A stretch of 37,414 nucleotides of DNA from a virus (lineage: Duplodnaviria; Caudoviricetes), in IMG/VR virus record IMGVR_UViG_3300044709_000239, positions 1-37,414 of that record. The stretch is one strand, 5' to 3'. Positions 3,548 through 34,278 of the stretch are shown in pieces. Position 1 is the stretch's first letter, and each line of letters begins with the position of its first letter. The notes under the pieces are model-generated. The model did not search any database. It had not been told where the DNA came from and worked only from the letters and a program-made list of their open reading frames with translations. The position numbers and the translations under genes are program-made.

Positions 3548-5707
3548 ATGCCGATGTATTTTCCCCCATGGGACACGGATACGGAACCATCCGAGTCAAA
3601 TATAAAAATTTGGATGGATAACTTATACGGCAAATTCGAGCCTATTGAGCAAGCCCGATGGAATCAGTCCAACATAGATACGCTTTTCTATGCCGGTGAG
3701 CAGCGGTTCATCAATTCTTATTTCAACTTTAACCCGCAATATAATTACCAGACTTTCCAATTCAACCTGATCGCTCAGCCAGTGAATATGGTGACTGGAT
3801 ACCAAAGGCAGCACCGTAGATCTATAAACTATTTGCCTATAGAGGGCTCTAAGCAAGAATATGCCGATGATCTTACGAAATTGGTGGTGTATGCCAATAA
3901 CTATAATGGGATCTTAGAAAAATTCTCACAGGCATGCGAACAAGCCGCTATTGCCGGAATGGTTCTAGTACAGCCATATCTAGACTATACTCAAGACCCT
4001 GTGAACGGCCAAATGGATCTTAAAGTTTGGTCATACAATAGCTTTATGATGGACCCATATTTCCGACAAACTGGCGATATGAGCGACTGTAATTTCGTAT
4101 GGTGTCAACAGTATATCTCCAAGGCTGAAGCGATAAATCGTTTCCCGCAAAAGGCAGATTTATTGCAAACCATGTCCGGGTATGGGAACCGATACGGTAA
4201 ATTTTATTTCCTTCCAGAAAACTATAATCTAGCCCGGAATGACCTGCTGGTACTATCGCACGTATGGTATAAGAGCAAACGTAAGAAAAAGATGCTCTAT
4301 AACCATAACGATGGCATCTCATATGACTATGTGGATGATGATAAATATCTAGATGACCTGATAAAAAATACTGGGTTTTTTGAAATCATAGAGGTCACTG
4401 TTCCCACGTGGAAATTGGCAAGCGTTATCAATGAGCAGATCATGTACTTGGGGGGTAATCCCATGGGCTTTGATGAATGCCCATTTGTTCCGGTATTCTG
4501 GAATTATGATCCCCATGTTGCTCAATATGATCTGAGAGTGCGATCACTAGTCCGCAGCATGCGTGACAGCCAATTCCTTTTAAATCGTCGGATTATTTTA
4601 AATCACGATATCAGTGAAAGTTCTATAAACTCAGGATGGCTGAGAAAAGAAAATGCCATTGCCAATGAAGATGATCTCCGATATTCGGGGCAAGGAAAAG
4701 ACATCATAATCAAAGAAGGCTTCGAGCTAAGTGATATACAGAAAATCATCCCCAACGCAGTGCCTCCAAGTGATATGGAACTTGCAAACCAGCTGGCGGA
4801 TTTTATCTTCAGAACTTCTGGAGTCAATCAAGAGCTCATGGGGATGGCATCCGACTCCAAAACTGGCATACAAGAGATGCTACGTCAGGGCGCAGGCCTG
4901 GTAACTTTACAAAAGTATTTTGACCAGTGGGATATCGCCCTAAAGCAGCTAGGCAAATTGGAACAAAAGATCATTCAGAATAAGTGGAGCCCTTCAAAGA
5001 TCGCTAGGATACTTGGCAAGGAACCAAATCCTGAATTCTTGAATAAAACATACTCACAATATGATGTCATGGTTGCAGAAGGTCTAAACACCACTCTACA
5101 GCAACAACAGCAATTTGTGCAGATGATGGATCTAAATACCATTTTAGGAGGGATAATTCCTCCTAAATTCTTATTGCAGCATTCCACTATCCAAGGGAAA
5201 AACGAGATCATAGAGGCCATCGAGCAACAGCAAGCGCAGCAAGCAGAAATGGCCCAACAAGAAGCCATGCTAAAACATACTCTTCTAGAAGCTCAATTGC
5301 AGAATATGCAAGCAAAATCTGCTGCTGAGCTAGCTACCGCTAGAGAACGGCACGGAAGGGCTGAAGCAGATATAGGATTATTCGAAGAGCGCCTGTCTGA
5401 GATATCACAGAACCGTGCTATGGCTGTTAAGAATAAAGTGGACGCTTTGGCTAAACTGATTGAGACGACCATGAAATATGGCCAGTTTGAAATGGATAGG
5501 CAAGAGCGTGAATTAGAGAAGATGAATGTACAAGCTGTTATGGATGAAGATCGTGAAAAACAAGATGCAAAGATGACGTCTGATTCTAACGATTTCCTTG
5601 CTCAGATGATGCAAAAGATATCCTCTCAAAATACCATGGAAGGTCAACAGCCACAGGCGGCCCCTATGGGTCAACAACAAGGAATACAACAAGGAGTTCC
5701 ACAATGA
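3548..5707 (+). CDS. Portal protein (P22-like)
   Basis: 719 aa; FNLIAQPVNMVTGYQRQHR motif, PFVP...GxxxSG segments, Gln-rich C-terminal barrel helix; AGGAG RBS; heads the head operon. Confidence 0.9.
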   Translation: MPMYFPPWDTDTEPSESNIKIWMDNLYGKFEPIEQARWNQSNIDTLFYAGEQRFINSYFNFNPQYNYQTFQFNLIAQPVNMVTGYQRQHRRSINYLPIEGSKQEYADDLTKLVVYANNYNGILEKFSQACEQAAIAGMVLVQPYLDYTQDPVNGQMDLKVWSYNSFMMDPYFRQTGDMSDCNFVWCQQYISKAEAINRFPQKADLLQTMSGYGNRYGKFYFLPENYNLARNDLLVLSHVWYKSKRKKKMLYNHNDGISYDYVDDDKYLDDLIKNTGFFEIIEVTVPTWKLASVINEQIMYLGGNPMGFDECPFVPVFWNYDPHVAQYDLRVRSLVRSMRDSQFLLNRRIILNHDISESSINSGWLRKENAIANEDDLRYSGQGKDIIIKEGFELSDIQKIIPNAVPPSDMELANQLADFIFRTSGVNQELMGMASDSKTGIQEMLRQGAGLVTLQKYFDQWDIALKQLGKLEQKIIQNKWSPSKIARILGKEPNPEFLNKTYSQYDVMVAEGLNTTLQQQQQFVQMMDLNTILGGIIPPKFLLQHSTIQGKNEIIEAIEQQQAQQAEMAQQEAMLKHTLLEAQLQNMQAKSAAELATARERHGRAEADIGLFEERLSEISQNRAMAVKNKVDALAKLIETTMKYGQFEMDRQERELEKMNVQAVMDEDREKQDAKMTSDSNDFLAQMMQKISSQNTMEGQQPQAAPMGQQQGIQQGVPQ

Positions 5708-5919
5708 AAAGCATGGCAGATAAAAAAATGGACATGACCGTTGGCAAACCCAAGTCTGAAGGGTTTTTCCCGGAAGAAGCCAACCGTAAGGTTTTGGCTA
5801 GGGCTGGCGATATCAAAGGATTTAAATATCCTGATACCGAAGAAAGCATCATGAGTGATCAACAGCAATTTGTTAGGGATACTAGCAAAAACATGCCTAA
5901 ACCTGAATTCAGGCACTAA
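5704..5919 (+). CDS. Hypothetical protein
   Basis: ATGA overlap with the portal stop; AGGAG upstream. Confidence 0.7.
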   Translation: MKSMADKKMDMTVGKPKSEGFFPEEANRKVLARAGDIKGFKYPDTEESIMSDQQQFVRDTSKNMPKPEFRH

Positions 5920-5920
5920 A

Positions 5921-6115
5921 ATGAATTATAGCGATAAATTGTATGAGCCTACATTCATCACGCCAGCATACGATGACCGAGATATAGAAAATGTCGGTAA
6001 ATATCGCGGTGTTGGAGAGGCTGGAAAAGTAGGCCTAAACAACTGCACTTCATATGATCCAATGCCTTCTACACCCAAAAAAGGGCAAGTTAAGAGGGAC
6101 TATGAAACAAGATAG
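5921..6115 (+). CDS. Hypothetical protein
   Basis: ATG two bases after the previous stop (MNYSDK...). Confidence 0.6.
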   Translation: MNYSDKLYEPTFITPAYDDRDIENVGKYRGVGEAGKVGLNNCTSYDPMPSTPKKGQVKRDYETR

Positions 6116-6263
6116 CCTGCCATATTCTAGTCGCAACAACAATTCTGTAGGTAAACATCACGGGATTGGTATACCGACTCAATATGGAGCAAAGAAAGGC
6201 GGATATACAGATTCGCCAAAACAGAAGAAGCTTCCCATAGGGCATCCTCCAAGGAACTTTTAG
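6102..6263 (+). CDS. Small basic hypothetical protein
   Basis: GAGGG RBS before ATG 6102 (MKQDSL...). Confidence 0.55.
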   Translation: MKQDSLPYSSRNNNSVGKHHGIGIPTQYGAKKGGYTDSPKQKKLPIGHPPRNF

Positions 6264-6925: not shown

Positions 6926-7636
6926 ATGACAGATCAAGCCGTTAATTCTCCGGTCGTCGGCGCTCCGGATGCTCAGACTAGCGACAAGGAAGTAAATTTC
7001 CGGCGGTTAGAAGCTGCCAGAGATTCCGAAAGGGAAGCTCGGATCCGTGCAGAAATGCACTCCCAGCGTATGGAAGAAGAACTCAAAAACATAAAAGATA
7101 TGCTACAACCTAAAGAGAGCGATCCTTTGGATAGTAGCGAAGACTATGTTGACGGTGTTCGACTAAAAGCGAAACTTGAAAAAGAAAGAGCTTCATACGA
7201 AAAGAAAGCTGTGGATATCGCTAGGAACACATATGAGCAAATCCAGTTGGAGGAAAAAAAGAAGAATTTCCTGGGGAGACTTAAATCCGAGCATTCTGAT
7301 TACGATCAGATAATGAGCGAGAATAATGTTATCAACCTGGAAAAACAGAATCCTCATTTTGTGCAGGCAATTTTAAAGATAGACGACGAATACGATAGAA
7401 GAAAATTGGCCTATGAGTATCTCAAAGCCAATCAAGCTCCTAAGGAAACGTTTCAAAGTATTAAAGATAAAGTGGCTGAAAATGCTTCCAACCCCTACTA
7501 CATACCAGCGGGCAGCGGAACACCTACAGCCATTGAATTTGATACCAAGTCCGCATCCTCTCGTGAAGCGGCTTATGCGAAATTGAAAGCTGCACAGAAA
7601 CGACCAATTGGATCCGGCACTGGCCTAGCACATTAG
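6926..7636 (+). CDS. Probable capsid scaffolding protein
   Basis: Charged coiled-coil protein directly upstream of the MCP; AAGGA RBS before ATG 6926. Confidence 0.75.
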   Translation: MTDQAVNSPVVGAPDAQTSDKEVNFRRLEAARDSEREARIRAEMHSQRMEEELKNIKDMLQPKESDPLDSSEDYVDGVRLKAKLEKERASYEKKAVDIARNTYEQIQLEEKKKNFLGRLKSEHSDYDQIMSENNVINLEKQNPHFVQAILKIDDEYDRRKLAYEYLKANQAPKETFQSIKDKVAENASNPYYIPAGSGTPTAIEFDTKSASSREAAYAKLKAAQKRPIGSGTGLAH

Positions 7637-7688
7637 CTAGGTGCTTCCTCAGGCCGTTAGAAGATAACTTTTAACGCTTGAGGTCATA

Positions 7689-8636
7689 ATGACTATAACA
7701 ACAACCAGCAACTTACCAGCACCGATTTTACAATCGCTTGCTCCGGGTATGCTGTCGGTGCCTACACCGAATTTTAACTACATAATTCCGGCTGAAAAGT
7801 ATTCGATGCCCCGTAACGGTGGTACTACGATGCGTTTTTTGCGACCAGTTCCTCTACAGCCCCCCGTAGTTCAGCTGGGGAATACCGGCATAGAACCAGC
7901 TTCACAAGTGGCGACAAGAGAGATCTTAGATGCTGCTATGGCGTTCTATGGCACCTCTGTGATACTTAACGAGCAGGTCGTGATCCAGGACCAGGATCCA
8001 ATTTTGTCGTGGGTAACGGAGCGTCTTGGCGTAGCAATGAGACAAGCTGAAGATATAATCCTTCGTGATTATCTTTTGAGCGCTGTTTCTGTCTATAACT
8101 GCCGTGGTGGCACTAATGGAGACAATCCTACTGATATATCTGTAAGAGATCTTTCAGCTGTTGCGTCTTCTTTAGACACCAGCAATGCATTTAAATTCTT
8201 GTCGGGTAAGCAAGGCGAAAACCGTTTCGGAACGTCTCCGATCCGTAGCGCCTATTTCTTACTTTGCAGCACAGAATTACAGCCAGCATTTGATGGCATG
8301 GATAAATTCACAAGCTCGTGGAACTACCCTAACCAAAATGATGTGATCTATAGCGAATATGGCGCAGTGCTGAACTTTAGAATTTTTACAAGTTCTGAAG
8401 CTGCTGTACAGCGCAATGCTTCTATGAATGGCAATGACGTGTTTAACAACATGGCAGTCGCAAGAGAATCATATGCTCATATAGACCAGGACGGATATTC
8501 TAGCCAACTACTATATCGTCCCCCTATTTTCAGCGGTCCTCTGGCTTTGAACGGCACTCTGGGTGTGAAATTTGCCCAAGCTCAAGCTCTCTTACAAGAG
8601 ACTTGGATCCGTAACGTACGTTGCACATTAGCCTAA
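7689..8636 (+). CDS. Major capsid protein (N4-gp56-like, HK97 fold)
   Basis: 315 aa; MPRNGGTTMRFLRP, YG..V.L.EQV, LG..MRQAED, E.G....RIF, GPL...GTLGVKF pattern typical of N4-gp56-family MCPs; position after scaffold. Confidence 0.85.
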   Translation: MTITTTSNLPAPILQSLAPGMLSVPTPNFNYIIPAEKYSMPRNGGTTMRFLRPVPLQPPVVQLGNTGIEPASQVATREILDAAMAFYGTSVILNEQVVIQDQDPILSWVTERLGVAMRQAEDIILRDYLLSAVSVYNCRGGTNGDNPTDISVRDLSAVASSLDTSNAFKFLSGKQGENRFGTSPIRSAYFLLCSTELQPAFDGMDKFTSSWNYPNQNDVIYSEYGAVLNFRIFTSSEAAVQRNASMNGNDVFNNMAVARESYAHIDQDGYSSQLLYRPPIFSGPLALNGTLGVKFAQAQALLQETWIRNVRCTLA

Positions 8637-8646
8637 GGGGGATATC

Positions 8647-9684
8647 ATGACAGAATATAATAAAATTTCCGATGTGACCTTCACCTCTACCGGTGTTGCA
8701 AAATACATCAAACTTCCATATTTGCCTGATTCGGTAGAGATGTGGAACAAAACAGCGTCGGCTCTAAATACAAATCATTTGGTTGCATCTGCAATTGGCT
8801 GGGCTGCTGAAAACTCTGGCGTAGCATATACACAGACTAGCAATGGCACTGCCAATACAAACGTTAAAATTACCGCAGGTGGTTTTAGCTTTGTAACAGC
8901 GGGAACATATCAATATGGTCCAACTCTAACAATTTCAGGGATTGTGGCTGCCACAGGTGTTGTAACAACTACAACTCCCCACAACCTAGCTGTTGGGGAT
9001 GCCGTACAAATTTACGGAACCACAGGCATGCTTCAGATAGCTGGGACAGCTACTACTGTAACAGCCGTTCCGTCCACAACAACATTCACATTAGGGAATA
9101 TTCCTACCGCCGGATTCGCAGCTAATGCAACAGCCGGTTTTGCTAAGAAAATTCTCTACCCTGATTTGTATAAGCCTTATGGGACTATTGTCACTGGCGT
9201 GACAGCAGCTAACCCATGCGTAATCACGACATCTTTAAATCACAGTTTTGTTGTTGGCCAAGAAGTATTCTTCGTTATGCCACAGACTGCATTCACTGGT
9301 GTTTGGGGTATGGGCGGATTGGATAGTGCTGCTGTTGTTAATGCGACCGGCATTCCTCAGCAAGCCTATGTAACGGCCATTACCAGCAATACCATAACTA
9401 TCAATATCGATAGCTCAGGATTTGCGGCATTTACATACCCAACAAGCGCTCAAGCGGCTCTTGGAATAACTTTCCCACAGGTATTTGCTATCGGTGACCA
9501 GAATTCTGGACAATCTTCCGTTGTTCAGCCTTTAACACCCCCAATAACTATACCTGGGGCATTTTATGCTAACACAAGCCAAGGAGTAATCGTTGGCATT
9601 GGTGACGGGACAACCCTAATGCACCAAACCGGCGATGTGATCAAGTTAAGATTTATTTATCCTGATCAAATTTTTACGGCATAA
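8647..9684 (+). CDS. Capsid decoration/structural protein with two E1-FCCH-like beta domains
   Basis: VVTTTTPHNLAVGDAVQIYGTTGM and VITTSLNHSFVVGQEVFF repeats; co-transcribed with the MCP before a terminator. Confidence 0.65.
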   Translation: MTEYNKISDVTFTSTGVAKYIKLPYLPDSVEMWNKTASALNTNHLVASAIGWAAENSGVAYTQTSNGTANTNVKITAGGFSFVTAGTYQYGPTLTISGIVAATGVVTTTTPHNLAVGDAVQIYGTTGMLQIAGTATTVTAVPSTTTFTLGNIPTAGFAANATAGFAKKILYPDLYKPYGTIVTGVTAANPCVITTSLNHSFVVGQEVFFVMPQTAFTGVWGMGGLDSAAVVNATGIPQQAYVTAITSNTITINIDSSGFAAFTYPTSAQAALGITFPQVFAIGDQNSGQSSVVQPLTPPITIPGAFYANTSQGVIVGIGDGTTLMHQTGDVIKLRFIYPDQIFTA

Positions 9685-12265: not shown

Positions 12266-12876
12266 CCTATACTCCGGGAACCCCGCAACCACAGACAATA
12301 CCATCTTCAGACCAGGATGACTTCGTAGAAAATTTCCAACTGTTGAATCAGTTTTTTGGAGCGGATCATATCCCATTTACTGCGATCTCCGGAAATGGCA
12401 ACCACAAAAAAGTCACACTGAACGCTAATTTAAATACCGGACCCATGTTTCCAGGGAGTGGTATTTTCCCTAATTCTTCAGCCGTTTATACAAAAAAAAT
12501 TAGTGTAACTTCAAAAGATCCGCCTGATTTATATTTCCAAAATAATATTGGAGCTACATTCGAGAAGCTGGTTACATCACTACGAGTAATAAAAGGCGAT
12601 GGAGCAAATGGTTTTGGTATGGTCACACCCTGGGGTATAATAATAAATTTTGGCATGGTAAATGATCCTGATTTAAATCTTACTTTTGATTTCCCAGTTC
12701 CCTATACCACTGAAGTTTATTCTATAGTAAACTGCGGCGTAGATTTTAAGGACTTGCCAGGTGCTCAACAATTCAGTTATGCGAATATAGTTTCACTTAC
12801 CCAATTTATTTCCAGAACAACAACTATAACAAATGCTTTTGGGTTTGCAACGTGGTATATGGCGGTGGGGAAATGA
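12262..12876 (+). CDS. Tail-associated protein (paralog of previous gene)
   Basis: Same motifs; ATGA coupling at both ends. Confidence 0.65.
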   Translation: MTYTPGTPQPQTIPSSDQDDFVENFQLLNQFFGADHIPFTAISGNGNHKKVTLNANLNTGPMFPGSGIFPNSSAVYTKKISVTSKDPPDLYFQNNIGATFEKLVTSLRVIKGDGANGFGMVTPWGIIINFGMVNDPDLNLTFDFPVPYTTEVYSIVNCGVDFKDLPGAQQFSYANIVSLTQFISRTTTITNAFGFATWYMAVGK

Positions 12877-15638
12877 CCAGTTCTTTAGTCATCAGCAATT
12901 TTAAAACTGGATATGAGACTGATCGAGAGCCATTCATTATCAATAATGACGCATTCCCTATTCTGAATAATGCATATCAGTGGCGAGGAAAATTGCTCAG
13001 GAAGCGAGGTACTCAACTTCTTGGCAGACTCCAGCGGAATTTATCGAATCAGACTACGGTCAACCTCAATGGATCTGGCAATATAGCTTTTAATCTGCTA
13101 ACAACACTTGGCATAATTGCTATATCCCCGAATGCATCTATCGTTCCTGGCACTTTATCTATTTTTGTCGCTGTAGGTGCTGGTTATACGTTTGCCGATA
13201 CCAATAGCGATGGCAGACTCATAACTACGGGGGCAAACTGGGATAATGCGATCACAGCAGTTTTTCTTGGTGTTACCACGACTCTTACCGTCGGTGCCGG
13301 ACATTTCTTTGTCATCGGTGATGGCGTTTATATTTCTGGAGTCACAGGTACGACTATTCTAAACGGATATTCCACGGTAACAGCCATTAACGCTACCCAA
13401 ATAGCGGTAAATATCGATACTACCGGACAGCCAGCCTATACAGGCGGAGGTCGAGTCCAGCGTGTTGCAGGTTCTGTCAATTATGCCACTGGCGCTATAG
13501 TTTTGATTACAAACAGAGGTGCTTTCGCAGGCCAAGCGCTAGTGGTATCTTTCGGATATTATCCGGCTTTGCCGGTTATGGGATTGGAAGATCTTGAAAC
13601 AGATATCATAAACTTTCCTATCTTGGTTCCATTCGACACCAAATATAGTTATCAATTCAACCAGACGACAAACATTTTTTATGATACAACTTTTTATAAA
13701 AATACATTCATCCCCTTCGTATGGCATGGTTCTGACTTCCAACAATTTTGGACGACTAGCTATTCGGGCGCGATGTGGACTACCAATAATGTGACCGGAT
13801 TTCAATTCAAGAACATAACATTAGTCGTTCCTGGAGCTGCTAGCGTATTCACGATTGTAGCACATGGCCTGACCAATCTAGATTATGTTTTTATCAATGA
13901 AGTCGGTGGTATTACAGGTGTAAATGGGGTATCCGGTTTAGTTACGGTGCTTACAGCCAACACCTTTTCCATACCAACACCAGGAGCTGCCGGGGTATAT
14001 ACTGCTGCAACAGGCATTGCTCAATACATGACTAGCCAAGCAAGTCCCGGAGTTGATGGGATCAAGTGGTATGATGGCGATCCCACGGATGTTGGACATG
14101 CTAAAGGATGGGTAAATTTCTCTCCTCCACTATCCAATGCTGGATTAACCGGCGGTAAGCCCGAATATCTTATTGGCGCCAGAATGATTGTAGCCTTCAA
14201 GAATAGACTTCTATTTTTTGGGGTGACTACTCAAACGAGCGGTGGCGTCACCAGATTCTTACCTAATCGGTTGGTCTACTCACAAGTTGGCACTCCCTTT
14301 TACTCTCTGCCAGTTCCGGCGCAACAAGTCGCTGATGATGCCGCTTATTTCGAGAACGTAGCTGGAAGAGGCGGATTTATCACCGCTCCCACCCAGCAAT
14401 TTATGATAACGGCTTTTGAAAACAATGATGTGATCTTGGTGGCCTTCGAAAGCCGGCAAATGAAACTACTGTTTACTGGTGATGACAGCTTGCCATTCAT
14501 ATACCAGACCATCAACACTGAATTGGGTGCGCAAAGCACTTTCACTGGAATTTCTCTCGATACCGGAGTTCTTTCCATTGGAGATTACGGAATCACCCTT
14601 ACAACTCCAGAAAGTACGCAAAGGGTGGACTTACAGATCCCTGACACGGTTTTCTCGATCAGCCCAGCCAATAGCGGAGATGAACGTGTTACGGCTGTCA
14701 GAGACTTCCGTAATGAGTTTATTTACTATACGTACTGTGCCGGCGGAAATACCGCTAAATTCCCCAATCAGTCACTCGTATACAATTACCGAGATGCCAC
14801 ATGGGCTATCTTCCAAGAAAATTACACCAGCTATGGAACATTTAGAAGATCTTCCAATTTTACATGGGCCACTTTGCCTTATAGGACTTGGGCTTCTTGG
14901 AGTACCCCTTGGAATTTTGGGGTCACTGATCAGCGATATCCTGATATCATCGGCGGCAATCAGCACGGGTTTGTGATGCGGAAAGACACCACATCATGCC
15001 GAGAAGATTATTCACAAATGATCACGGATATTTCCGGAAATATAGTCACATCCCCAGATCATGGCTTACTGAGCGGAGATTTCATTATGATTAATGAAAT
15101 TGTCTCTTCGCCCTCCATGGTTTTATGGAATGGTGTGATCCAAAAAATCACGGTAACGGGCGCAAATACATTCACAGTGGAATTAACTTCTACAGGCACT
15201 TACGGAGGCGGGGGAGTCTATAGACGGATTCCTAACTTCCTGATACAGACAAAACAATTTCCTTTATTTTGGGATAATGGAAGAAAATGCCGTATAGGTA
15301 CACAGAGGTTCTTACTGACCACTACGACTGATGGCCAGATGCAATGCAATATATACACATCTCAGAATGCGAATGTAGCTAATAATGACCCTCTTATTTC
15401 CGGATACCTAGCTTTTACCAATGTGTTGCTGACTAAAGCCGAGCCAAACGACTTGAATATGGCAGCTCCGGAACAATCCCAGATATGGCATCGAATGTCC
15501 AATAGCTTTCAAGGTGATAGCGTACAAATAGGATTTACCTTTTCTGAAGTACAGCTGAGAGACGATACGATCGCTACGTCCGATATAACAATACATGCAA
15601 TCGCCTTTGACCTACATCCTGGACCAATATTATGCTAA
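12873..15638 (+). CDS. Probable tail nozzle / tubular protein B (P22 gp10/T7 gp12-like) with FCCH-like insertions
   Basis: ~920 aa beta-rich; NA...RG.L.KR.G N-terminus, FKNRLLF, LVYNY...WA propeller-type motifs; ATGA overlap at 12873. Confidence 0.7.
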   Translation: MTSSLVISNFKTGYETDREPFIINNDAFPILNNAYQWRGKLLRKRGTQLLGRLQRNLSNQTTVNLNGSGNIAFNLLTTLGIIAISPNASIVPGTLSIFVAVGAGYTFADTNSDGRLITTGANWDNAITAVFLGVTTTLTVGAGHFFVIGDGVYISGVTGTTILNGYSTVTAINATQIAVNIDTTGQPAYTGGGRVQRVAGSVNYATGAIVLITNRGAFAGQALVVSFGYYPALPVMGLEDLETDIINFPILVPFDTKYSYQFNQTTNIFYDTTFYKNTFIPFVWHGSDFQQFWTTSYSGAMWTTNNVTGFQFKNITLVVPGAASVFTIVAHGLTNLDYVFINEVGGITGVNGVSGLVTVLTANTFSIPTPGAAGVYTAATGIAQYMTSQASPGVDGIKWYDGDPTDVGHAKGWVNFSPPLSNAGLTGGKPEYLIGARMIVAFKNRLLFFGVTTQTSGGVTRFLPNRLVYSQVGTPFYSLPVPAQQVADDAAYFENVAGRGGFITAPTQQFMITAFENNDVILVAFESRQMKLLFTGDDSLPFIYQTINTELGAQSTFTGISLDTGVLSIGDYGITLTTPESTQRVDLQIPDTVFSISPANSGDERVTAVRDFRNEFIYYTYCAGGNTAKFPNQSLVYNYRDATWAIFQENYTSYGTFRRSSNFTWATLPYRTWASWSTPWNFGVTDQRYPDIIGGNQHGFVMRKDTTSCREDYSQMITDISGNIVTSPDHGLLSGDFIMINEIVSSPSMVLWNGVIQKITVTGANTFTVELTSTGTYGGGGVYRRIPNFLIQTKQFPLFWDNGRKCRIGTQRFLLTTTTDGQMQCNIYTSQNANVANNDPLISGYLAFTNVLLTKAEPNDLNMAAPEQSQIWHRMSNSFQGDSVQIGFTFSEVQLRDDTIATSDITIHAIAFDLHPGPILC

Positions 15639-17909: not shown

Positions 17910-19786
17910 AAAACCTAAATGACGATTTTGGTTTCGAATATTTCGATTCCGATGAAGACGAATCCGTAGAATCTAATGAAACTTATAGCGATGAAGAAGA
18001 TCAATTTGGATTTCAGCCATTTGATGTTTATGAAGATGAAGAGAAGCCTGAGGACTATACTCAAAAACCATCTGAACAAGAAATTCCTGAACCAGAAGAA
18101 AGCTTCTGGCAAAAAGTTGTGAGCAATCCAGTTACACAAACTATTCTGGGTGCTGTTCAAGGAGTAACATCTCCTCTAGATATACTGAAAATGTTTATCA
18201 CCGGTGAAGGTCTGACTGATTTAGATGAGTTAGAGAACGCTTATGAAAATCAGGGGTTGCCTTTCGATCGAGAAGACTATATACAAAAAGTTTTTCAATT
18301 AGCTGAGCATATACCAACATTAGGTGGTGCTCAGAAGCTAACAGAAGAAAAAACAGGCCTAGATCTGTCCCCAAAAGACACATTTTCTAAAATCCTTCGA
18401 ACAGGAACAGAAATCGCGACCTCAGGCCCTTTATCTTTAGGCAAACAGGCGGTTAAACAAGGTGCCAAGCGTCTGGGGACTGGTATAGCTGCGGCAAGTG
18501 CTGGCGAGGGCGCCAAAGAACTTGGTGTCCCAGAACAGGCCGCTGATATTGGATCTTATATTCTAGGTGGAATAGCTAATGCAAGAAAGCAGCCAGTCAA
18601 GTTAACTGGTAAACAAGCAGAGACAAAAGCCTTTGCTGAAAAGCATAACCTGAGAAAATTCGGTGGACTAGAAGCCGAAGAACCTCTTAAGAACGCCATT
18701 GCTCCAAGACCTAAGATTACGGCAGCAGCAGAAGAGCTCAGCGAAACATCACAGAAGGCTATAGACAAGATTATAGCTGATAAGATCCCTATAGCCAAGC
18801 AAAGGGCTATGGGCGTTGATTTAAGAGATGCCTATAGCAAGGCATATGCTAAGTCTAATCAAACTGCTAAAGCATTGGATGCTGGGAAAAAGTCTGGTGC
18901 TATCGACTTGGATTCACTCACTGTGAATATTAAAGACAAGATTAAAAAGATCCAAAATAGCGCTCCTTCTTTGAGTCCTTCTGACAAGACGGCCATCAAA
19001 GAACTGAAAAAGCAATACAAAGCTTTGAGTGACAAAAATCCTACCACTGATACCTATATTGGTAAGAAAATATCTGCTGAGCAGGCATTGGACCAGTATA
19101 AGAACTTTAATGAAGAAGTCGAAGGCATATATCGCAAAGCTGATTTTACTGGATCTGAAGAGGTAATCAAAAACCTGTATGGTGAGCTGAAAAGCGATTT
19201 AATCAATTCGATAGAGAAATCATCGCCTGAATTGGCTAAAGAACTGCGATTTGCCAATAAAATATACAGCGAAACTTCCAAACTTGATCAGATTACTAAA
19301 ATGACCAAAAAGGCCTTTGAAGATGGTTACAATCCGACCAAGTTGAATCAGATACTCGGCGGGAAACGGAATCGTCAGTTTATTGAGCGAGACCTTGGCA
19401 AAGATGCTGTAAAAGAAATGCAGGACATTGCCAAATATGGCATGGATGCAGAGAAATACGTCCTCAAAGTTATCAAAGAACCTAAAACAATCACTCAACT
19501 TGCATCTGAACTGACTCCAGCCAAAGCCATGCTTCTACTAGCGAAAGGATCCGCTGCTATGGTACCGATCCTTGGATATGATATCCCTAAAGCCCTAGCT
19601 CAAAGGGCTAAAGGCACTATGATGCTAAGCCCAAAAGGAAGGCATTCATATTCTGAATTCCTTAAACATTCCATTAGCCCTGAGAGCGCAGCTTTTAAGA
19701 AAGCGTCCAGGGAACTAACGAAAACGATTGAAGAAGAATATGGTAGTGAAGAAAAATTTATAAAATTCCTAGAGGAAGAAGATTAG
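17906..19786 (+). CDS. Probable ejection protein 3
   Basis: 626 aa; acidic N-terminus, G/A-rich mid-segment, helical remainder; last gene of the virion operon. Confidence 0.55.
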   Translation: MKNLNDDFGFEYFDSDEDESVESNETYSDEEDQFGFQPFDVYEDEEKPEDYTQKPSEQEIPEPEESFWQKVVSNPVTQTILGAVQGVTSPLDILKMFITGEGLTDLDELENAYENQGLPFDREDYIQKVFQLAEHIPTLGGAQKLTEEKTGLDLSPKDTFSKILRTGTEIATSGPLSLGKQAVKQGAKRLGTGIAAASAGEGAKELGVPEQAADIGSYILGGIANARKQPVKLTGKQAETKAFAEKHNLRKFGGLEAEEPLKNAIAPRPKITAAAEELSETSQKAIDKIIADKIPIAKQRAMGVDLRDAYSKAYAKSNQTAKALDAGKKSGAIDLDSLTVNIKDKIKKIQNSAPSLSPSDKTAIKELKKQYKALSDKNPTTDTYIGKKISAEQALDQYKNFNEEVEGIYRKADFTGSEEVIKNLYGELKSDLINSIEKSSPELAKELRFANKIYSETSKLDQITKMTKKAFEDGYNPTKLNQILGGKRNRQFIERDLGKDAVKEMQDIAKYGMDAEKYVLKVIKEPKTITQLASELTPAKAMLLLAKGSAAMVPILGYDIPKALAQRAKGTMMLSPKGRHSYSEFLKHSISPESAAFKKASRELTKTIEEEYGSEEKFIKFLEEED

Positions 19787-19948
19787 ATGAACTTAAAATT
19801 TGTATTATCATGCTGCTGCGCATCTATGGTTGTGTGCAGCTTCTTATATGGCCTATTCGGGTATTATGAGCCTGCCTCTTGGTGCGCTCACGTTTCTCTG
19901 CCTTGTGCTATTCTTCTCACATCTCTGTGGGATAGATATAACGATTAA
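19787..19948 (+). CDS. 53-aa Cys-rich two-TM membrane protein (not in ORF track)
   Basis: MNLKFVLSCCCASMVVCSFLYGLFGYYEPASWCAHVSLPCAILLTSLWDRYND; ATG immediately follows the previous TAG. Confidence 0.55.
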   Translation: MNLKFVLSCCCASMVVCSFLYGLFGYYEPASWCAHVSLPCAILLTSLWDRYND

Positions 19949-19950
19949 TG

Positions 19951-19979
19951 TTGACTAAAATTTCCAATATGTCCATAAT
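19951..19979 (+). promoter_or_regulatory. Sigma70-type promoter
   Basis: TTGACT-17 bp-CATAAT upstream of ORF 20018. Confidence 0.6.
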
Positions 19980-20017
19980 TTCAAATTAAGTGGACGATTT
20001 GGACCTTAGGAAACATT

Positions 20018-20197
20018 ATGCCTGACATATGTAAATGTCCTGGCGATAATTGTAAAAAGAAAGAACAATGCTTTCGATTTACGGCACACGCAGACACTTA
20101 TCAAACGTATTTTCATGCAGCCCATTGTATCGAAGAAGACTTCCACTACTTTATACAGGATAAACGGCTATTAAGTCAAGAGGATAACAAAAAATAA
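20018..20197 (+). CDS. 59-aa Cys-rich phage protein (not in ORF track)
   Basis: MPDICKCPGDNCKKKEQCFRFTA...; AGGA RBS; pattern resembles a widespread small phage protein. Confidence 0.7.
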   Translation: MPDICKCPGDNCKKKEQCFRFTAHADTYQTYFHAAHCIEEDFHYFIQDKRLLSQEDNKK

Positions 20198-20256
20198 TGA
20201 AAGATTTTGTTTTACTCGTATTTGTTTTGGTGGCAGTCTTAAACAATACAATATAG
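20197..20256 (+). CDS. Possible 19-aa hydrophobic peptide
   Basis: MKDFVLLVFVLVAVLNNTI; TAATG overlap; GAGGA upstream. Confidence 0.35.
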   Translation: MKDFVLLVFVLVAVLNNTI

Positions 20257-20263
20257 TTTATAT

Positions 20264-20345
20264 GCTATGTTAGCTCAGGCAGTTAGAGCACTTATGAGGT
20301 TAGATTCCTTATGGGGGGTCGTTGGCGCAACTCCAACACGTAGCT
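20264..20345 (+). tRNA. Non-canonical tRNA-like RNA (9-bp anticodon arm, AGA in a 7-nt loop, no encoded CCA)
   Basis: Acceptor GCTATGT/ACGTAGC, D stem GCTC/GAGC, arm CTTATGAGG/CCTTATGGG, variable GGGTC, T stem GTTGG/CCAAC. Confidence 0.8.
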
Positions 20346-20351
20346 TCTCAT

Positions 20352-20519
20352 TTAATTGCCACCCGCTTGGCAACTCAGAGACAGCATAATTCCTTTAGGG
20401 GAAACTCTCAAATATGCTCAATCTCATGCGGAATTATTCGGCTCACCCCTAGCCAATGAAGAGACGGTCTGGTGCGATTGCATGTTGTGACCTACACCCA
20501 ATCTCATGGGGAATTTTTC
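20352..20519 (+). ncRNA. Tandemly duplicated structured RNA motif (two ~80-nt units)
   Basis: Each unit: CACCC-loop hairpin, GAGAC, variable hairpin, CAATCTCATG(C/G)GGAATT; the loop/tail pairing covaries. Confidence 0.55.
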
Positions 20520-20540
20520 CAGTTATAACAAATAATCCAT

Positions 20541-20566
20541 ACTTATACCTGAAACCGGGTATAAGT
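20541..20566. terminator. Strong hairpin closing the RNA locus
   Basis: ACTTATACCTG-AAAC-CGGGTATAAGT; no clear U-tract, so terminator function is uncertain. Confidence 0.45.
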
Positions 20567-20662
20567 TAGCAAAGATCGCTTGATCTTAATGATTTCTTTG
20601 TCCATACTTGGTGTGATTGCAAAATTTTGCGCAATCTATCTTAACAAAGTAGGAGTCACAAC

Positions 20663-21166
20663 ATGCAAGCAACATCAAGACCTGTATCTTATTGGGGATA
20701 TGATGCCCCACGAGAGCAGGCAATAGAAGAAGCGCATTCTTCATCTTCCGAAGCATCAACACCGCCAGATTCACCAAAGATCGTCCAGTTTAACGGATCT
20801 ATCTCAGGACAGTCCACTCGTGCTACAGATGAGATCGATAGACTAGGTAGACTTCTTGTCAATGAACAAGCCCGAACTGCAGTGCAGGCAAATTTGATAC
20901 AGGAACTCAGGACAAAACTAGCGGAAGAAATCGAGAAGAATAGGGTGATAAGTGCCGAAGCGCCTCGTAGAGCAGAACAGGCAGCACAACAAGCGACTGA
21001 GGCTGCCGACAACCACTACTATCAAGCTGGGCAAGACCGACAACAGGAAGCAAGTTGGTTTGAAAAATATCGTGCTATGTCATGGGGTTCTTTAGGGCTG
21101 GCTATGGTTGGAACTGCTGTTGCTGTGGCAGCTATAGTGATGCAGATTTTCCGGATGGTGAAATAA
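20663..21166 (+). CDS. Tail-anchored coiled-coil protein (candidate effector)
   Basis: AGGAG RBS; S/P/T-rich N-terminus, central coiled coil, C-terminal TM LGLAMVGTAVAVAAIVMQIF followed by RMVK. Confidence 0.8.
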   Translation: MQATSRPVSYWGYDAPREQAIEEAHSSSSEASTPPDSPKIVQFNGSISGQSTRATDEIDRLGRLLVNEQARTAVQANLIQELRTKLAEEIEKNRVISAEAPRRAEQAAQQATEAADNHYYQAGQDRQQEASWFEKYRAMSWGSLGLAMVGTAVAVAAIVMQIFRMVK

Positions 21167-21666
21167 TGCGAATGACCGACTTTAGTTTTTTCCCGCAAAA
21201 GCCTTTCACACCGCAGACATTGCCTCAACTGCCACGCGAACTTATGGCTATCATCATCAATAACATGAGCCTACAAACTTTATTGTCATTCGAAAGATGT
21301 TCTAAAGCATGGGGGCAAGAAATCAATGAAAGCTACCGTCTACAAACAGCTAAAGATATGCCTGAAAAATATGCTCCGGCCTCTGCATTCCCCAGAAACA
21401 CATGGAAGAAGTTCTATTTCAACAACAATGAATTTGTCCGTGTGCGGCATTTAAATCAGATTTCACTAGCTAAAGAAGGGCCAAAAGTATGTCAGATTAG
21501 CAATGAAATATCGCAAATGGCCATAACTATATCGGTCGGCAATTTTGTCTGTTTAGTTGCGCCACCAGTTCTATCAAGTGTTTTAGCCCTTCCAGTGTTG
21601 GGTCAATTCGTATTATGGGCTGTAGGAGATACGGAAAAATCAGCAAGATATGAGGCTCCAGTATGA
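21166..21666 (+). CDS. F-box domain protein with C-terminal hydrophobic anchor
   Basis: LPQLPRELMAIIINNMSLQTLLSFERCSKAW fits the F-box consensus; downstream WKKFY; ~37-aa hydrophobic segment; TAATG coupling gives start 21166. Confidence 0.75.
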   Translation: MRMTDFSFFPQKPFTPQTLPQLPRELMAIIINNMSLQTLLSFERCSKAWGQEINESYRLQTAKDMPEKYAPASAFPRNTWKKFYFNNNEFVRVRHLNQISLAKEGPKVCQISNEISQMAITISVGNFVCLVAPPVLSSVLALPVLGQFVLWAVGDTEKSARYEAPV

Positions 21667-22115
21667 TATCACCGAGAGCAATGGAGTCTCAGCCTCTATT
21701 AGATTCTTTCCAGCGCATAAAACCTCAGTGGGAGATTGACTCTGATAATGAACTCGCTGAAACACATAGACAAGTTGCTGCATGGAGAGACGAATCTAAT
21801 GCTCAATGTGCCGAGAACGCAATTAATCTTGAGATCATAAGAGCCTCATTTGCTAGTATCGATGAATCCCACACTCAAATGGCAGCTATTAGAGCTAGAC
21901 GTCTTGCAGAGGAAAACATGCCCTTTGCAGAGCGTGTTGAGCGGCGAAAGATCGTCATCCTAGAGAACCTTACATGGCTCCTAGAAGCTACCAAGCGTAT
22001 CTTTTCCAATATGCCTAAGGTGTTTCAAGCAATTGCAGCAATGATAGCAACTGTAGCTATGGCGATTCTTGGCTATGTAGCATATAGACATATTTCACCT
22101 ACTATATCCCAGTAA
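21663..22115 (+). CDS. Tail-anchored helical protein with N-terminal ExxxLL motif (candidate effector)
   Basis: MISPRAMESQPLL; helical/coiled-coil body; TM VFQAIAAMIATVAMAILGYVAY; ATGA coupling. Confidence 0.8.
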   Translation: MISPRAMESQPLLDSFQRIKPQWEIDSDNELAETHRQVAAWRDESNAQCAENAINLEIIRASFASIDESHTQMAAIRARRLAEENMPFAERVERRKIVILENLTWLLEATKRIFSNMPKVFQAIAAMIATVAMAILGYVAYRHISPTISQ

Positions 22116-22119
22116 AACA

Positions 22120-22150
22120 GGCTCACATGCAAGTGTGAGCCATATAATTT
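22120..22150 (+). terminator. Hairpin/terminator after the three-gene cassette
   Basis: GGCTCACAT-GCAA-GTGTGAGCC followed by an AT-rich tail. Confidence 0.6.
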
Positions 22151-23357: not shown

Positions 23358-23921
23358 CTAACATGCCATCGCTGCCATGTAGTTGTATAATGATGTTCGG
23401 GAAACTCCTAGCTCTTTTGCTATATCACATTTTTTTCTCTTAGTCTGTAGCAACTCTTTGAGTCTGACAATCTTTTCTGAGGTCAATTTTGTCTGACCAC
23501 CTTTGAATTTACCAGCTTTCTTCGCAATCGCTATGCCCTCTTTCTGCCGCTCCCGTATAAATGAGTGCTCAAACTCGGCGAATGCGCCCATGATAGATAG
23601 AAGAAGATTAGCCATAGCTGAGTCACAGCCATTGAATTGCATGTTCTCTTTCATGAAGTGCACCTGAACTTTTCTGGAGACCAGGCCACTCACTAGAGTA
23701 CGCAAGTCCATTAGGTTTCGTGCCAGCCTATCCATGCTGTGGACGACTACAATATCATCCTCTCGGACGAATTCTAGCATCGATTGTAGCTGCGGTCGGT
23801 TGGTCGATCCGGCTGATGCGTAGTCTATGAATTTCTTGTCTATCTGGATCCCTTCAAGCTGCCTGTCGGGATTTTGGTCTGTCGTGCTGACTCGGATATA
23901 TCCGATGCGTTTACCTGTCAT
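23358..23921 (-). CDS. Small serine recombinase (resolvase/invertase family) with C-terminal HTH
   Basis: GYIRVSTTDQN catalytic motif, SMDRLARN, FAEFE...IRERQKEGI, IAKELGVSRTSLYNY. Confidence 0.95.
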   Translation of the reverse strand: MTGKRIGYIRVSTTDQNPDRQLEGIQIDKKFIDYASAGSTNRPQLQSMLEFVREDDIVVVHSMDRLARNLMDLRTLVSGLVSRKVQVHFMKENMQFNGCDSAMANLLLSIMGAFAEFEHSFIRERQKEGIAIAKKAGKFKGGQTKLTSEKIVRLKELLQTKRKKCDIAKELGVSRTSLYNYMAAMAC

Positions 23922-25896: not shown

Positions 25897-26269
25897 ACGG
25901 TATTAAATAATTTGTATGTGATTCAGGCAACAATTTATTTTCCTCAGGTTTATATCCAAAAATTTCTTCGATTGCCAAAATTGTCTCTGGTGGTACAAGT
26001 TTAGAATTTGCCCATAACCAATGACTCGCATAGTCGTTTATTTGCAATTGACAAAATTTATAATACTTCTTACCCAAAATAGATCTCAAAAACTGTTTTG
26101 GATGATGAGAGGCGTCTATAGCTTCCCTTGCTCTCCAATAATGAGACAATACAATGTAATGAATAAAAATATATGCCTGCATCTTTGGATCTGCTGTTTT
26201 TTCAATCTTCTCCCACCCAATTCTTTTGGTCTCTTCACGTTCTTTATATGTGGGGTAAATTTCCATCAT
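25892..26269 (-). CDS. Hypothetical protein
   Basis: Start MMEIYP overlaps the DUF551 stop. Confidence 0.6.
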   Translation of the reverse strand: MMEIYPTYKEREETKRIGWEKIEKTADPKMQAYIFIHYIVLSHYWRAREAIDASHHPKQFLRSILGKKYYKFCQLQINDYASHWLWANSKLVPPETILAIEEIFGYKPEENKLLPESHTNYLIPS

Positions 26270-26308
26270 TCTTGTCCTGGTGGTTTCGGCAACGGCATCC
26301 AATGTGTT
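26264..26308. repeat. 45-bp direct repeat, copy 1 (copy 2 at 26710-26754)
   Basis: CATCAyTCTTsTCCTGGyGGTTTCGGCAACGGCATCCAATGyGTT, 4 mismatches. Confidence 0.9.
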
Positions 26309-26517
26309 GGATGCAATCCTTCAGCACAGCAACCGCACCCAGTGGCATTCTCTGACCATGTAACTTTTGACTCTTTTCTATAGCCAGCAACTGGATAGAA
26401 ATCCATATGACCCACATACATAGTGCCATCAGAATCCAATATCAACACATCCTCTGAATTAGAGCTCTGTGTCTCATCAACCTCTGGTAATCGCTCTTTA
26501 ACACTTATCCATTGCAT
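26266..26517 (-). CDS. DUF551-family protein
   Basis: MQWISVKERLP...THWMPLPKPP. Confidence 0.9.
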   Translation of the reverse strand: MQWISVKERLPEVDETQSSNSEDVLILDSDGTMYVGHMDFYPVAGYRKESKVTWSENATGCGCCAEGLHPTHWMPLPKPPGQE

Positions 26518-26520
26518 ATA

Positions 26521-26712
26521 TTACCTATCCGGGTTCGAAAATTCCATCCAATGGGTTATTTTAGGATATTTTTCTTCACATTCAAAATCAATTGTATCGT
26601 CTTCCCAGATACCATCCACAACACAACATCTAAACGTCTCTTCACTTTTATTTTTACCTATTACAATTAGGAATTGGTCTGGCAATCGATCTGTAACATT
26701 GATCCATTTCAT
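26521..26712 (-). CDS. DUF551-family protein
   Basis: MKWINVTDRLP...ITHWMEFSNP; TGATG coupling. Confidence 0.8.
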   Translation of the reverse strand: MKWINVTDRLPDQFLIVIGKNKSEETFRCCVVDGIWEDDTIDFECEEKYPKITHWMEFSNPDR

Positions 26713-26754
26713 CACTCTTCTCCTGGCGGTTTCGGCAACGGCATCCAATGCGTT
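26710..26754. repeat. 45-bp direct repeat, copy 2
   Basis: Matches 26264-26308. Confidence 0.9.
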
Positions 26755-27038
26755 ATCTCCTCAGATCCTGTTGCCCAAAACAGATCTCCGCATGCACATG
26801 CATTATTTTCATTTTCATTGCATAATGTTTGCCAAAATTCTCCGTCCCATCTAGCTATGCTCATTGGGCTGGGCTCGCATCCTAATTTTTTCGAATATAC
26901 CAATACAAATTGATATACTTCTGGCAATGCAGTGAAAATGCTAATCCATTCCATTTTAACCTCACAATCCATGTGCAATACCTTTCTTAAACGCCTAGCC
27001 AGTCGGTATTCATATTCCATAATTGTGTTGTCTTTCAT
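26712..27038 (-). CDS. DUF551-family protein (internal start at 26954 likely)
   Basis: MEWISIFTALP...ITHWMPLPKPP; GAGG before ATG 26954. Confidence 0.85.
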   Translation of the reverse strand: MKDNTIMEYEYRLARRLRKVLHMDCEVKMEWISIFTALPEVYQFVLVYSKKLGCEPSPMSIARWDGEFWQTLCNENENNACACGDLFWATGSEEITHWMPLPKPPGEE

Positions 27039-33373: not shown

Positions 33374-34278
33374 GATTTGAAACGCAGTTCTTCCATGATT
33401 GCAGCCCTCTGGTCGGCAGATAATTCACTGGGGGCTATGGGTGTAGGGACCCAGTCGTCTTTCGAGGTCTGGAAGGCTAGTTTTGAGTTTTTGCGATGAT
33501 AAGCTACGTCGCTCTCTGGGCCAGCCTTTTCTTTTCTCATCCGATACCATGAAAGGATGGTGGCGTAGTGTGATTTGTATTTCCTCATGAATTGCGCAAC
33601 GCCTTTCTTTTCAGCTTCGAGGTCTATGGTCTCGACCCAAGAGTCGAAGCCTGCTTGGCCGAACTTTTCCTTCAGCTTTCTTTGCTCCTCGGCCGTCAAG
33701 TGGCAATTGCCGTGCTCTCCTAGAGAATCTTTTGCATCTTCCGGGGTTTCTTTTCTTGCCGATGCTGGTGGCGTAGCCTTTTCGTTTGCAGATGAAGAAG
33801 AAGAACGAACCCGCTCCCGTGCCGCGATAGCGGCTTCCCCTTTGGGGGGTAGGGGGTATTTCTTATCTTTATTCTTCTCTTTATTCTCTATATATGAGGG
33901 GAGTGCGCTTTTATGCTCACCTGGTGTGCGCTTTTCCGCACTACTGCTGTGCGCTTTTCCGCACTGCTGCTGTGCACCTTCATATTCGACATTTGGAACA
34001 ATTGCCCTGCGAACTGTCCGTCTACCATCGAAGCTAATAGTTTCCATCAAACCAACAGCTTTCAGATCAGAAAAAAGCTCATACAGCCGTCTACGCTTGA
34101 GTTGCATAAATTCGCAAAGGTATTCTTCACTGGCATAGCATCCTCCGACGTTCGGATCATGTAAAGATCTAATTTCAGCCCACAGTGCCTTGGCTTGCAT
34201 GGAAATATCTCTTCGAAGCCAGATTTCTGCAGGTATCGTAATATGAGTGAAATGTCTTATGAGTGTTTCAGAGGTCAT
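33370..34278 (-). CDS. Replication initiator (lambda O-like, N-terminal winged helix)
   Basis: AKALW..I.SL....GGCYAS..YL; internal iterons; upstream of a DnaC-like gene. Confidence 0.85.
   Translation of the reverse strand: MTSETLIRHFTHITIPAEIWLRRDISMQAKALWAEIRSLHDPNVGGCYASEEYLCEFMQLKRRRLYELFSDLKAVGLMETISFDGRRTVRRAIVPNVEYEGAQQQCGKAHSSSAEKRTPGEHKSALPSYIENKEKNKDKKYPLPPKGEAAIAARERVRSSSSSANEKATPPASARKETPEDAKDSLGEHGNCHLTAEEQRKLKEKFGQAGFDSWVETIDLEAEKKGVAQFMRKYKSHYATILSWYRMRKEKAGPESDVAYHRKNSKLAFQTSKDDWVPTPIAPSELSADQRAAIMEELRFKS
33902..33977. repeat. 23-bp-period iterons; probable replication origin
   Basis: GTGCGCTTTT at 33903, 33926 and 33949 and partial GTGCAC at 33972, next to an AT-rich tract at about 33857-33896. 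Confidence 0.8.

Follow-up and report, generated by a model that had tools for sequence, protein, structure and literature searches.

A tandem pseudoknotted phage RNA behind a tRNA-like element, with predicted antisense pairing to the start of the adjacent cargo gene

C4 RNA lies upstream of its target and on the same strand. In phages P1 and P7 it is an antisense RNA that a host tRNA-processing enzyme cuts from a precursor and whose loops cover a ribosome binding site (RBS) (PMC5320573); it consists of three stem-loops, its 5′ cut is made by RNase P, and two of the loops are used. P4 CI and Gifsy-1 IsrK are small RNAs that share orientation with, or are cut from, the very transcript containing their complementary target (PMC4825925); CI acts by termination via seqA/seqC and IsrK activates translation. 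The type I antitoxins RalA, IstR-1, OhsC, and OrzO have 16–21 nt of complementarity to the mRNA of an adjacent gene while occupying a non-overlapping locus, and such trans-type antitoxins are opposite or divergent to genes with shown toxin products (sections of PMC4041452). Theta ribozymes are compact pseudoknotted RNAs that adjoin phage tRNAs (PMC10879173, in part), type III repeats precede a hairpin and then an ORF (PMC3401426, in part), and STAXI RNAs often carry UUCG caps and sometimes have c4 RNAs nearby (PMC2864571, in part).

The locus described here lies in a phage record of 37,414 nucleotides, the whole of which is referred to as the window. It comprises a tRNA-shaped RNA followed by two units of one pseudoknotted scaffold with different hairpin inserts, the second of which is complementary to the beginning of ORF 20663, the gene that follows (Table 1). 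We put at about one half the probability that the element is a small antisense RNA repressing translation of ORF 20663 and, likely, of two coupled cargo genes as well. By analogy, the best reading is that the two-unit RNA may work like P1 C4 or P4 CI on a different scaffold. As in C4 (RF01695), a loop is complementary to the RBS of one of the phage's own genes, here in the form of one long guide; the differences lie in a full tRNA shape, the two pseudoknotted units behind it, and a single 14–27-bp guide over the Shine–Dalgarno sequence (SD) and AUG. The C4 covariance model found no match at its gathering score, nor any with E up to 10 over 19950–20700. Relative to CI and IsrK, the target is the start codon of a cargo gene, the predicted effect is repression, and the fold is different. 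The limited complementarity to an adjacent gene's mRNA is shared with the type I antitoxins, from which the locus departs in its co-oriented RNA, its guide within a pseudoknot scaffold, and a 167-aa target with a hydrophobic C-terminus.

Table 1. Positions of the RNA elements, promoter-like sites, and cargo genes in the window
Feature	Positions	Strand	Details and basis
Promoter-like site P1	20230..20257	+	9/12 consensus; inferred start ~20264
tRNA-shaped RNA	20264..20345	+	ARAGORN with intron option; predicted fold
Partial unit-tail copy (TCTCAT..AATT)	20346..20357	+	Sequence; first base follows the tRNA-like RNA directly
Unit 1	20354..20435	+	Hairpin P1 20356–60/20369–73, loop 20361–68; P2 GAGA/UCUC with C/CAA loop, GAGAC at 20378; 36-nt insert hairpin 20383–20418; tail 20419–35; pseudoknot 20363–66 with 20428–31
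Unit 2	20436..20515	+	Same scaffold: hairpin P1 20440–43/20451–54; GAGAC at 20461; insert 20466–98; tail 20499–20515; pseudoknot 20446–49 with 20508–11; between-unit alignment and compensatory changes in variants
Unit-2 insert, antisense to SD, start codon, and first codons of ORF 20663	20466..20498	+	Exact core 20478–20491
Hairpin	20541..20566	+	−13.8 kcal/mol, no U-tract; possible weak terminator or small-RNA 3′ end
Promoter-like site P2 for the cargo operon	20580..20608	+	TTGATC-17-CATACT, 8/12, under scan cut-off
Predicted target: SD, AUG, and codons 1–7 of ORF 20663	20648..20682	+	Exact core 20655–20668
Three overlapping cargo ORFs	20663..22115	+	20663–21166, 21166–21666 (F-box), 21663–22115

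The shared architecture of the units had been outlined in a first-pass annotation made from the letters of the window, and it is present as described: both units combine the GAGA/UCUC stem and its C/CAA loop with a pseudoknot between the loop of hairpin P1 and the tail, one C-G/G-C swap in the pseudoknot is compensatory between them, and the partial copy TCTCAT adjoins the 3′ end of the tRNA-like RNA. In the window, the 17-nt tail pattern occurs exactly twice, and five times when up to three mismatches are allowed, against 0.70 expected; a 16/17 repeat within 120 nt occurs in none of 200 shuffles of 20251–20660. When the units are aligned, 27 of 28 cells in the pseudoknot, P2, and the insert stem pair (96.4%), hairpin P1 being excluded from the count because its register differs between units; with just these two sequences, the shuffle control falls short of significance (38–72 of 500). 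A topology descriptor returns the two units and nothing else in the window, one unrelated match, overlapping a tRNA gene, across 1.88 Mb from related phages, and none once those 1.88 Mb are shuffled. Folding energies are unremarkable (z = −1.57 for unit 1 and +0.43 for unit 2), pseudoknots being outside the energy model.

Natural variants also bear on the fold. Parts of 19000–22000 are contained in 11 sequencing runs, none of them listed as an RNA data set, which speaks neither for nor against transcription. Six were examined; two of these, from soil (X2) and lake water (X3), belong to different studies and carry diverged units. Run X1 may be the source, run X4 is identical across 20398–20619, and run X5 has no contig on 20345–20700. 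Both diverged variants share (i) A20464G with T20502C, which converts an A-U pair of P2 in unit 2 to G-C, (ii) G20467A with C20497T at the base of the unit-2 insert stem, and (iii) C20439A with A20455T, a new A-U pair that lengthens hairpin P1; X2 alone adds C20469A with C20495T. The first of these changes implies that the P2 strand pairs across the insert and not with the tail of the unit before it. In unit 2, the pseudoknot loop has no listed change. The GAAA cap reported for unit 1 agrees with the predicted fold in the window and is replaced by UUCG in both variants, which fits a structural, neutral hairpin on the + strand; the UUCG cap and a G-U wobble are both consistent with that strand. 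The variant evidence consists of single contigs at depth below 3, and sequencing errors are unlikely since the changes are shared by two studies. Compensatory changes in two stems, seen in variants from two other studies, make it likely that the fold is real and on the + strand. An outer stem pairing AATT/ATTC with the tail was considered and dropped, as both variants disrupt it through A20513T, T20438C, and C20439A.

A comparison with Rfam, which the first-pass annotation had suggested, returned nothing relevant: among 4227 curated families there is no match to twister, twister-sister, pistol, hatchet, known riboswitches, or STAXI, and the best hit (E 0.23) is unrelated. The hammerhead CUGAnGA block, as defined in the available part of PMC10085705, is absent from both strands of 20260–20600, which leaves no hammerhead in any permutation. 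A descriptor of the HDV/theta nested double pseudoknot (P1-P2-P3-P1.1, with C first in J4/2) gives 0 strict matches on both strands and recovers 20 of 20 random synthetic control constructs; with one mismatch allowed per stem, the 3 and 10 matches compare with a background mean of 10.

These results bear on a ribozyme reading, an idea the annotation had also raised. Here the units would be self-cleaving ribozymes from a class not yet described that cut the trailer into pieces; cleavage would release the antisense loop, and the insert would be a variable stem. The conserved CAA that follows the variable stem and the loop of hairpin P1 presumably recall HDV elements, and the compact pseudoknot with its conserved unpaired bases is of the kind such a ribozyme would have. 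The units also adjoin the 3′ end of a tRNA-like RNA, as theta ribozymes do (PMC10879173, in part). Theta ribozymes are nevertheless devoid of P4, whereas these units hold a long variable hairpin; covariation puts the pairing partner of GAGA behind CAA, an arrangement foreign to HDV; and no Rfam ribozyme matches with E up to 10. Together with the missing double pseudoknot and CUGAnGA block, this makes self-cleavage improbable.

Relatives of the scaffold were sought widely. The full pattern has 0 matches in viral contigs, where the tail alone (79), a relaxed pattern (20), and a start-region pattern (6) match at chance only, and the same holds for the matches in metagenome contigs (26) and GTDB genomes (16); none in the viral, metagenome, or GTDB sets combines hairpin P1, the insert stem, and the pseudoknot. 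Blastn returned eight short matches in named phages, none spanning whole units; plasmids gave no match. From 325 portal relatives 80 were kept: a DNA search of 50 records gave 0 real matches, and so did covariance model R1 in those 50 and in the other 30, which are mostly fragments. Model R1 was built from two sequences and includes the rejected outer stem, so its sensitivity may have suffered; a weak match of 15.9 bits in one relative (G039) was rejected on reading. The topology descriptor found no real match over 120 loci, and locus searches seeded with the proteins of ORFs 17906 and 21166 found nothing. A literature search found no description of the motif. Its tail motifs are absent from the available supplement of PMC10085705 and from the searched part of the PMC10690425 supplement, which extends to neither alignment archives nor large PDFs; the motif may be among the more than 10,000 candidates of the latter study. 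The term tRNA-like is absent from the accessible portion of a coevolutionary-mining preprint (10.64898/2026.09.22.753630). With no Rfam match and with compensatory changes in natural variants, the annotation's view of an undescribed structured RNA is supported, and the two-unit RNA is likely real, apparently uncatalogued, and rare, with no copy in the 80 related phage records.

The annotation had called the unit-2 insert unrelated in sequence; it is instead antisense to the start of the next gene. The core is complementary over 14 of 14 nt, and its target, 163 nt downstream, takes in the spacer, AUG, and second codon of ORF 20663; beyond the core the duplex goes on, with bulges, across the SD and as far as codon 7. 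The predicted duplex has −38.7 kcal/mol, the next best of 60 start regions has −29.4, and none of 300 dinucleotide shuffles of the insert reaches either that energy or a 14-nt run. The 14-nt complement is also the longest match of 20255–20580 to the remaining genome, and genome-wide no other non-self site surpasses the ORF 20663 start. With folding costs counted and the insert taken alone, ORF 20663 ranks first of 38 (−22.8 vs −17.3), followed by ORFs 15595 and 36261. Specificity is not absolute, because the ORF 36261 start does as well once all of unit 2 may unfold (−23.2 vs −22.8) and because 12 nt of ORF 15595 match the RNA region exactly, a match lost in the variants. That match and a 12/13 direct repeat with 20609–21, likewise lost, are likely due to chance. 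ORFs 15595, 20663, 26266, 35629, and 36261 all start with Met-Gln, and several of them are possible seeding sites for the exposed unit-2 loop. For the unit-1 insert, the best score over 60 phage starts is equalled by 140 of 300 shuffles, and it has no phage target.

The core is conserved as far as the changes listed for the variants go. Within the 33-nt insert, nine changes are listed in X2 and ten in X3, with 0 in the 14-nt core, which had been fixed beforehand (hypergeometric P = 0.0024 and 0.0010, values that are not independent because six changes are common to both). The tool left four differences unlisted in X2 and seven in X3; these appear to lie near contig ends, which take in positions 20488–91 of X2. 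The target is unchanged across 20641–20685 in both, in a region that is conserved in general in X2 (4 differences in 143 nt). By hand reading, the altered 5′ flank of X3 is complementary to 20677–20688 of the ORF 20663 mRNA; it also closes a stem of 7 bp, all perfectly paired, with most core bases left unpaired. Guide and target are on separate contigs in X2 and X3, and no covariation between them is seen, neither core having varied. As far as sequence comparison goes, the candidate antisense link to the adjacent cargo gene is statistically strong and conserved. The pairing of insert and start is itself quite probably functional, since the antisense reading and its main rival rely on the same pairing.

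That rival is a cis switch, in which the RNA read through from promoter-like site P1 would fold so that the insert covers the ORF 20663 start, with the tandem units serving as aptamers or protein sites whose folding frees the RBS and turns translation ON. The cis duplex dominates the predicted fold of 20264–20700, with pair probabilities of 0.89–1.0 for 13 of the 14 pairs in a read-through transcript, and no U-tract terminator stands ahead of the gene. An arrangement of this kind, with two successive domains, a conserved internal loop, and a neutral first cap, is typical of tandem aptamers. The switch would nevertheless be bypassed by much of the mRNA, given a promoter-like site with a conserved −10 between the RNA and the gene; guide and target are 163 nt apart; no Rfam riboswitch matches; and the folded scaffold of the variants, read by hand, exposes most of the core rather than hiding it. 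The window's own predicted fold has an open loop that takes in five of the 14 core bases. We regard the cis switch as the main competitor of the trans antisense reading and as unlikely in itself.

The two 14-nt arms invite a further explanation at the DNA level, namely that they are sites at which a serine resolvase/invertase flips promoter P2. A perfect inverted repeat does flank the promoter-like site, both arms are conserved in the variants, and a resolvase is encoded on the genome. Pairing beyond the core is out of register, with bulges as in RNA duplexes, and a flip would destroy unit 2. The examined contigs, which drop rare forms, contain no inversion joints, and in another run (X7) the sequence that continues past the start region does not match the left flank. 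DNA phase variation is accordingly the most far-fetched of the explanations weighed here.

The same run, X7, retains the promoter and start region to 20667 and has different sequence afterwards; its P2 −10 hexamer has no listed change, and its spacer is changed. In the window, the −10 context of P2 is repeated at a site at 19951–19979. The promoter scan as a whole is weak, with six sites found against 3.2 in shuffles. The hairpin behind the units was not called by the terminator scan.

ARAGORN makes no call at the tRNA-shaped RNA without its intron option; with it, at default score, this RNA is the sole gene found, and it is called tRNA-Gly(TCC) only after removal of 8 nt from the anticodon arm. 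The predicted anticodon stem has 9 bp and CCA is not encoded. The acceptor end (G1-C72, C2-G71, U73) is what we take to be glycine-type. A tRNA-arm pattern for relatives of this RNA gave 0 matches in viral contigs. Release of the two-unit RNA by tRNA-type processing is plausible, and a 5′ RNase P cut may be unnecessary because the weak promoter-like site P1 would start transcription at the first base of the tRNA-like RNA. Overlapping both P1 and the stop of ORF 20018 is a hydrophobic 19-aa mini-ORF (20197–20256, +), whose size and make-up are presumably like those of small type I toxins.

Under the antisense reading, a transcript would run from the tRNA-like RNA through both units to the hairpin at 20541–66, and host tRNA 3′ processing would cut after 20345 to free the two-unit trailer. 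The pseudoknotted scaffold of each unit, which covariation supports, would clamp the variable hairpin, and likely protects the RNA and holds the loop outward. The unit-2 hairpin, complementary in sequence to 20648–20682, is predicted to expose the anti-AUG in its apical loop. The guide would first kiss and then zip onto the mRNA transcribed from P2 and so keep ribosomes from loading, and translational coupling likely would carry repression to the two cargo genes behind ORF 20663. Unit 1 is likely a blank or a structural copy. Antisense action alone does not account for the C/CAA core and unit 1.

ORF 20663 encodes 167 aa and has three homologs; all four family members start with MQ, at identities down to 27%, and the MQ codons lie inside the core. 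The protein has no Pfam, PHROG, or PADLOC match and no NCBIfam match near the cut-off, and the ESM Atlas offered nothing usable. Each of the three cargo ORFs has a hydrophobic segment at its C-terminus. The operon is followed by a hairpin at 22120–22141; eight of its nucleotides are identical to the target core (ACATGCAA) and it opens like hairpin P1 of unit 2, probably by chance.

The nature of this product weighs on another proposal, that the RNA is a sponge or resembles a type III antitoxin, its repeats binding the downstream product or a host nuclease, with the complementarity secondary. Pseudoknot repeats in tandem are a trait of STAXI and of the type III RNAs ToxI, CptI, and TenpI, and a promoter, about two pseudoknot repeats, a hairpin, and a 167-aa ORF approximate a type III locus (PMC3401426, in part). 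The layout of repeats, palindrome, and ORF is indeed present, but the 33–36-nt inserts of the repeats are unrelated, one of them is antisense, and a second promoter-like site lies between. Neither a DNA-manipulation gene nor a known toxin is directly adjacent; Pfam, PHROG, PADLOC, and NCBIfam show no endoribonuclease of the ToxN, CptN, or TenpN type at ORF 20663, whose product matches no toxin or defence family and has the hydrophobic C-terminal segment. The sequence of X7 differs beyond the same start region, and the conserved antisense core is left unexplained. The sponge and antitoxin-mimic ideas of the first-pass annotation, like its ribozyme idea, gained no positive support, and we consider them quite improbable, more so than a ribozyme.

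The phage record is a complete genome of 37.4 kb with a 127-nt terminal repeat and encodes a P22-like portal, capsid, terminase, and recombination and replication genes. It belongs to a large uncultured group, with 325 portal relatives (from a search of viral contigs) and 1087 capsid relatives. The slot that the two-unit RNA occupies, after the last large structural genes, is variable, and other genes fill the syntenic position in 13 of 13 mapped related loci. A serine resolvase/invertase gene at 23358–23921 is closest to Legionella plasmid enzymes (60%). The F-box gene, the tail-hydrophobic cargo proteins, and this Legionella-plasmid-like resolvase suggest a bacterium living inside protists as the phage host.

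Several other features of the genome and its relatives were observed. Virion proteins at 8647–9684 and 12852–15638 match the FCCH domain of ubiquitin-activating enzyme E1, the latter above cut-off. An imperfect 30-nt repeat (7608–7637 and 8603–8632) precedes the capsid gene and the next structural gene, and could be a late regulatory element. Three adjacent DUF551 genes occupy 26266–27038 (−), with a 48-nt repeat at 26261 and 26707, and three repeats with 23-nt spacing inside the replication initiator gene (33903–33980) resemble an iteron-like origin. Downstream of the last large structural gene, three related loci (L215, L217, and L219) carry runs of 3–7 small paralog-like genes on the opposite strand that encode an N-terminal hydrophobic helix and resemble window ORF 133–384. 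A related 42-kb phage (L249) has a cluster of ten tRNA genes at 5076–6129 and 8575–8645.

A broader possibility, tentative and on balance doubtful, is that the pseudoknot is a modular scaffold with an activity of its own (self-cleavage, ligand sensing, or host-protein recruitment) and a swappable guide hairpin, such that arrays behind a tRNA mimic reprogrammably switch the start codons of cargo genes. If true, host-directed cargo genes would be turned on and off at the start codon by reprogrammable arrays. The conserved C/CAA core could be a new motif for catalysis or ligand binding, and a scaffold that accepts unrelated 33–36-nt inserts is a testable stable carrier of synthetic antisense loops. 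The combination of a tRNA mimic that is likely a processing signal, a tandem pseudoknot scaffold, and an anti-start-codon guide was not met in the searches made. If the antisense reading is right, the element adds a new RNA fold to the few phage antisense repressors, and would show how F-box and membrane cargo genes are gated in a phage of a probably intracellular bacterium.
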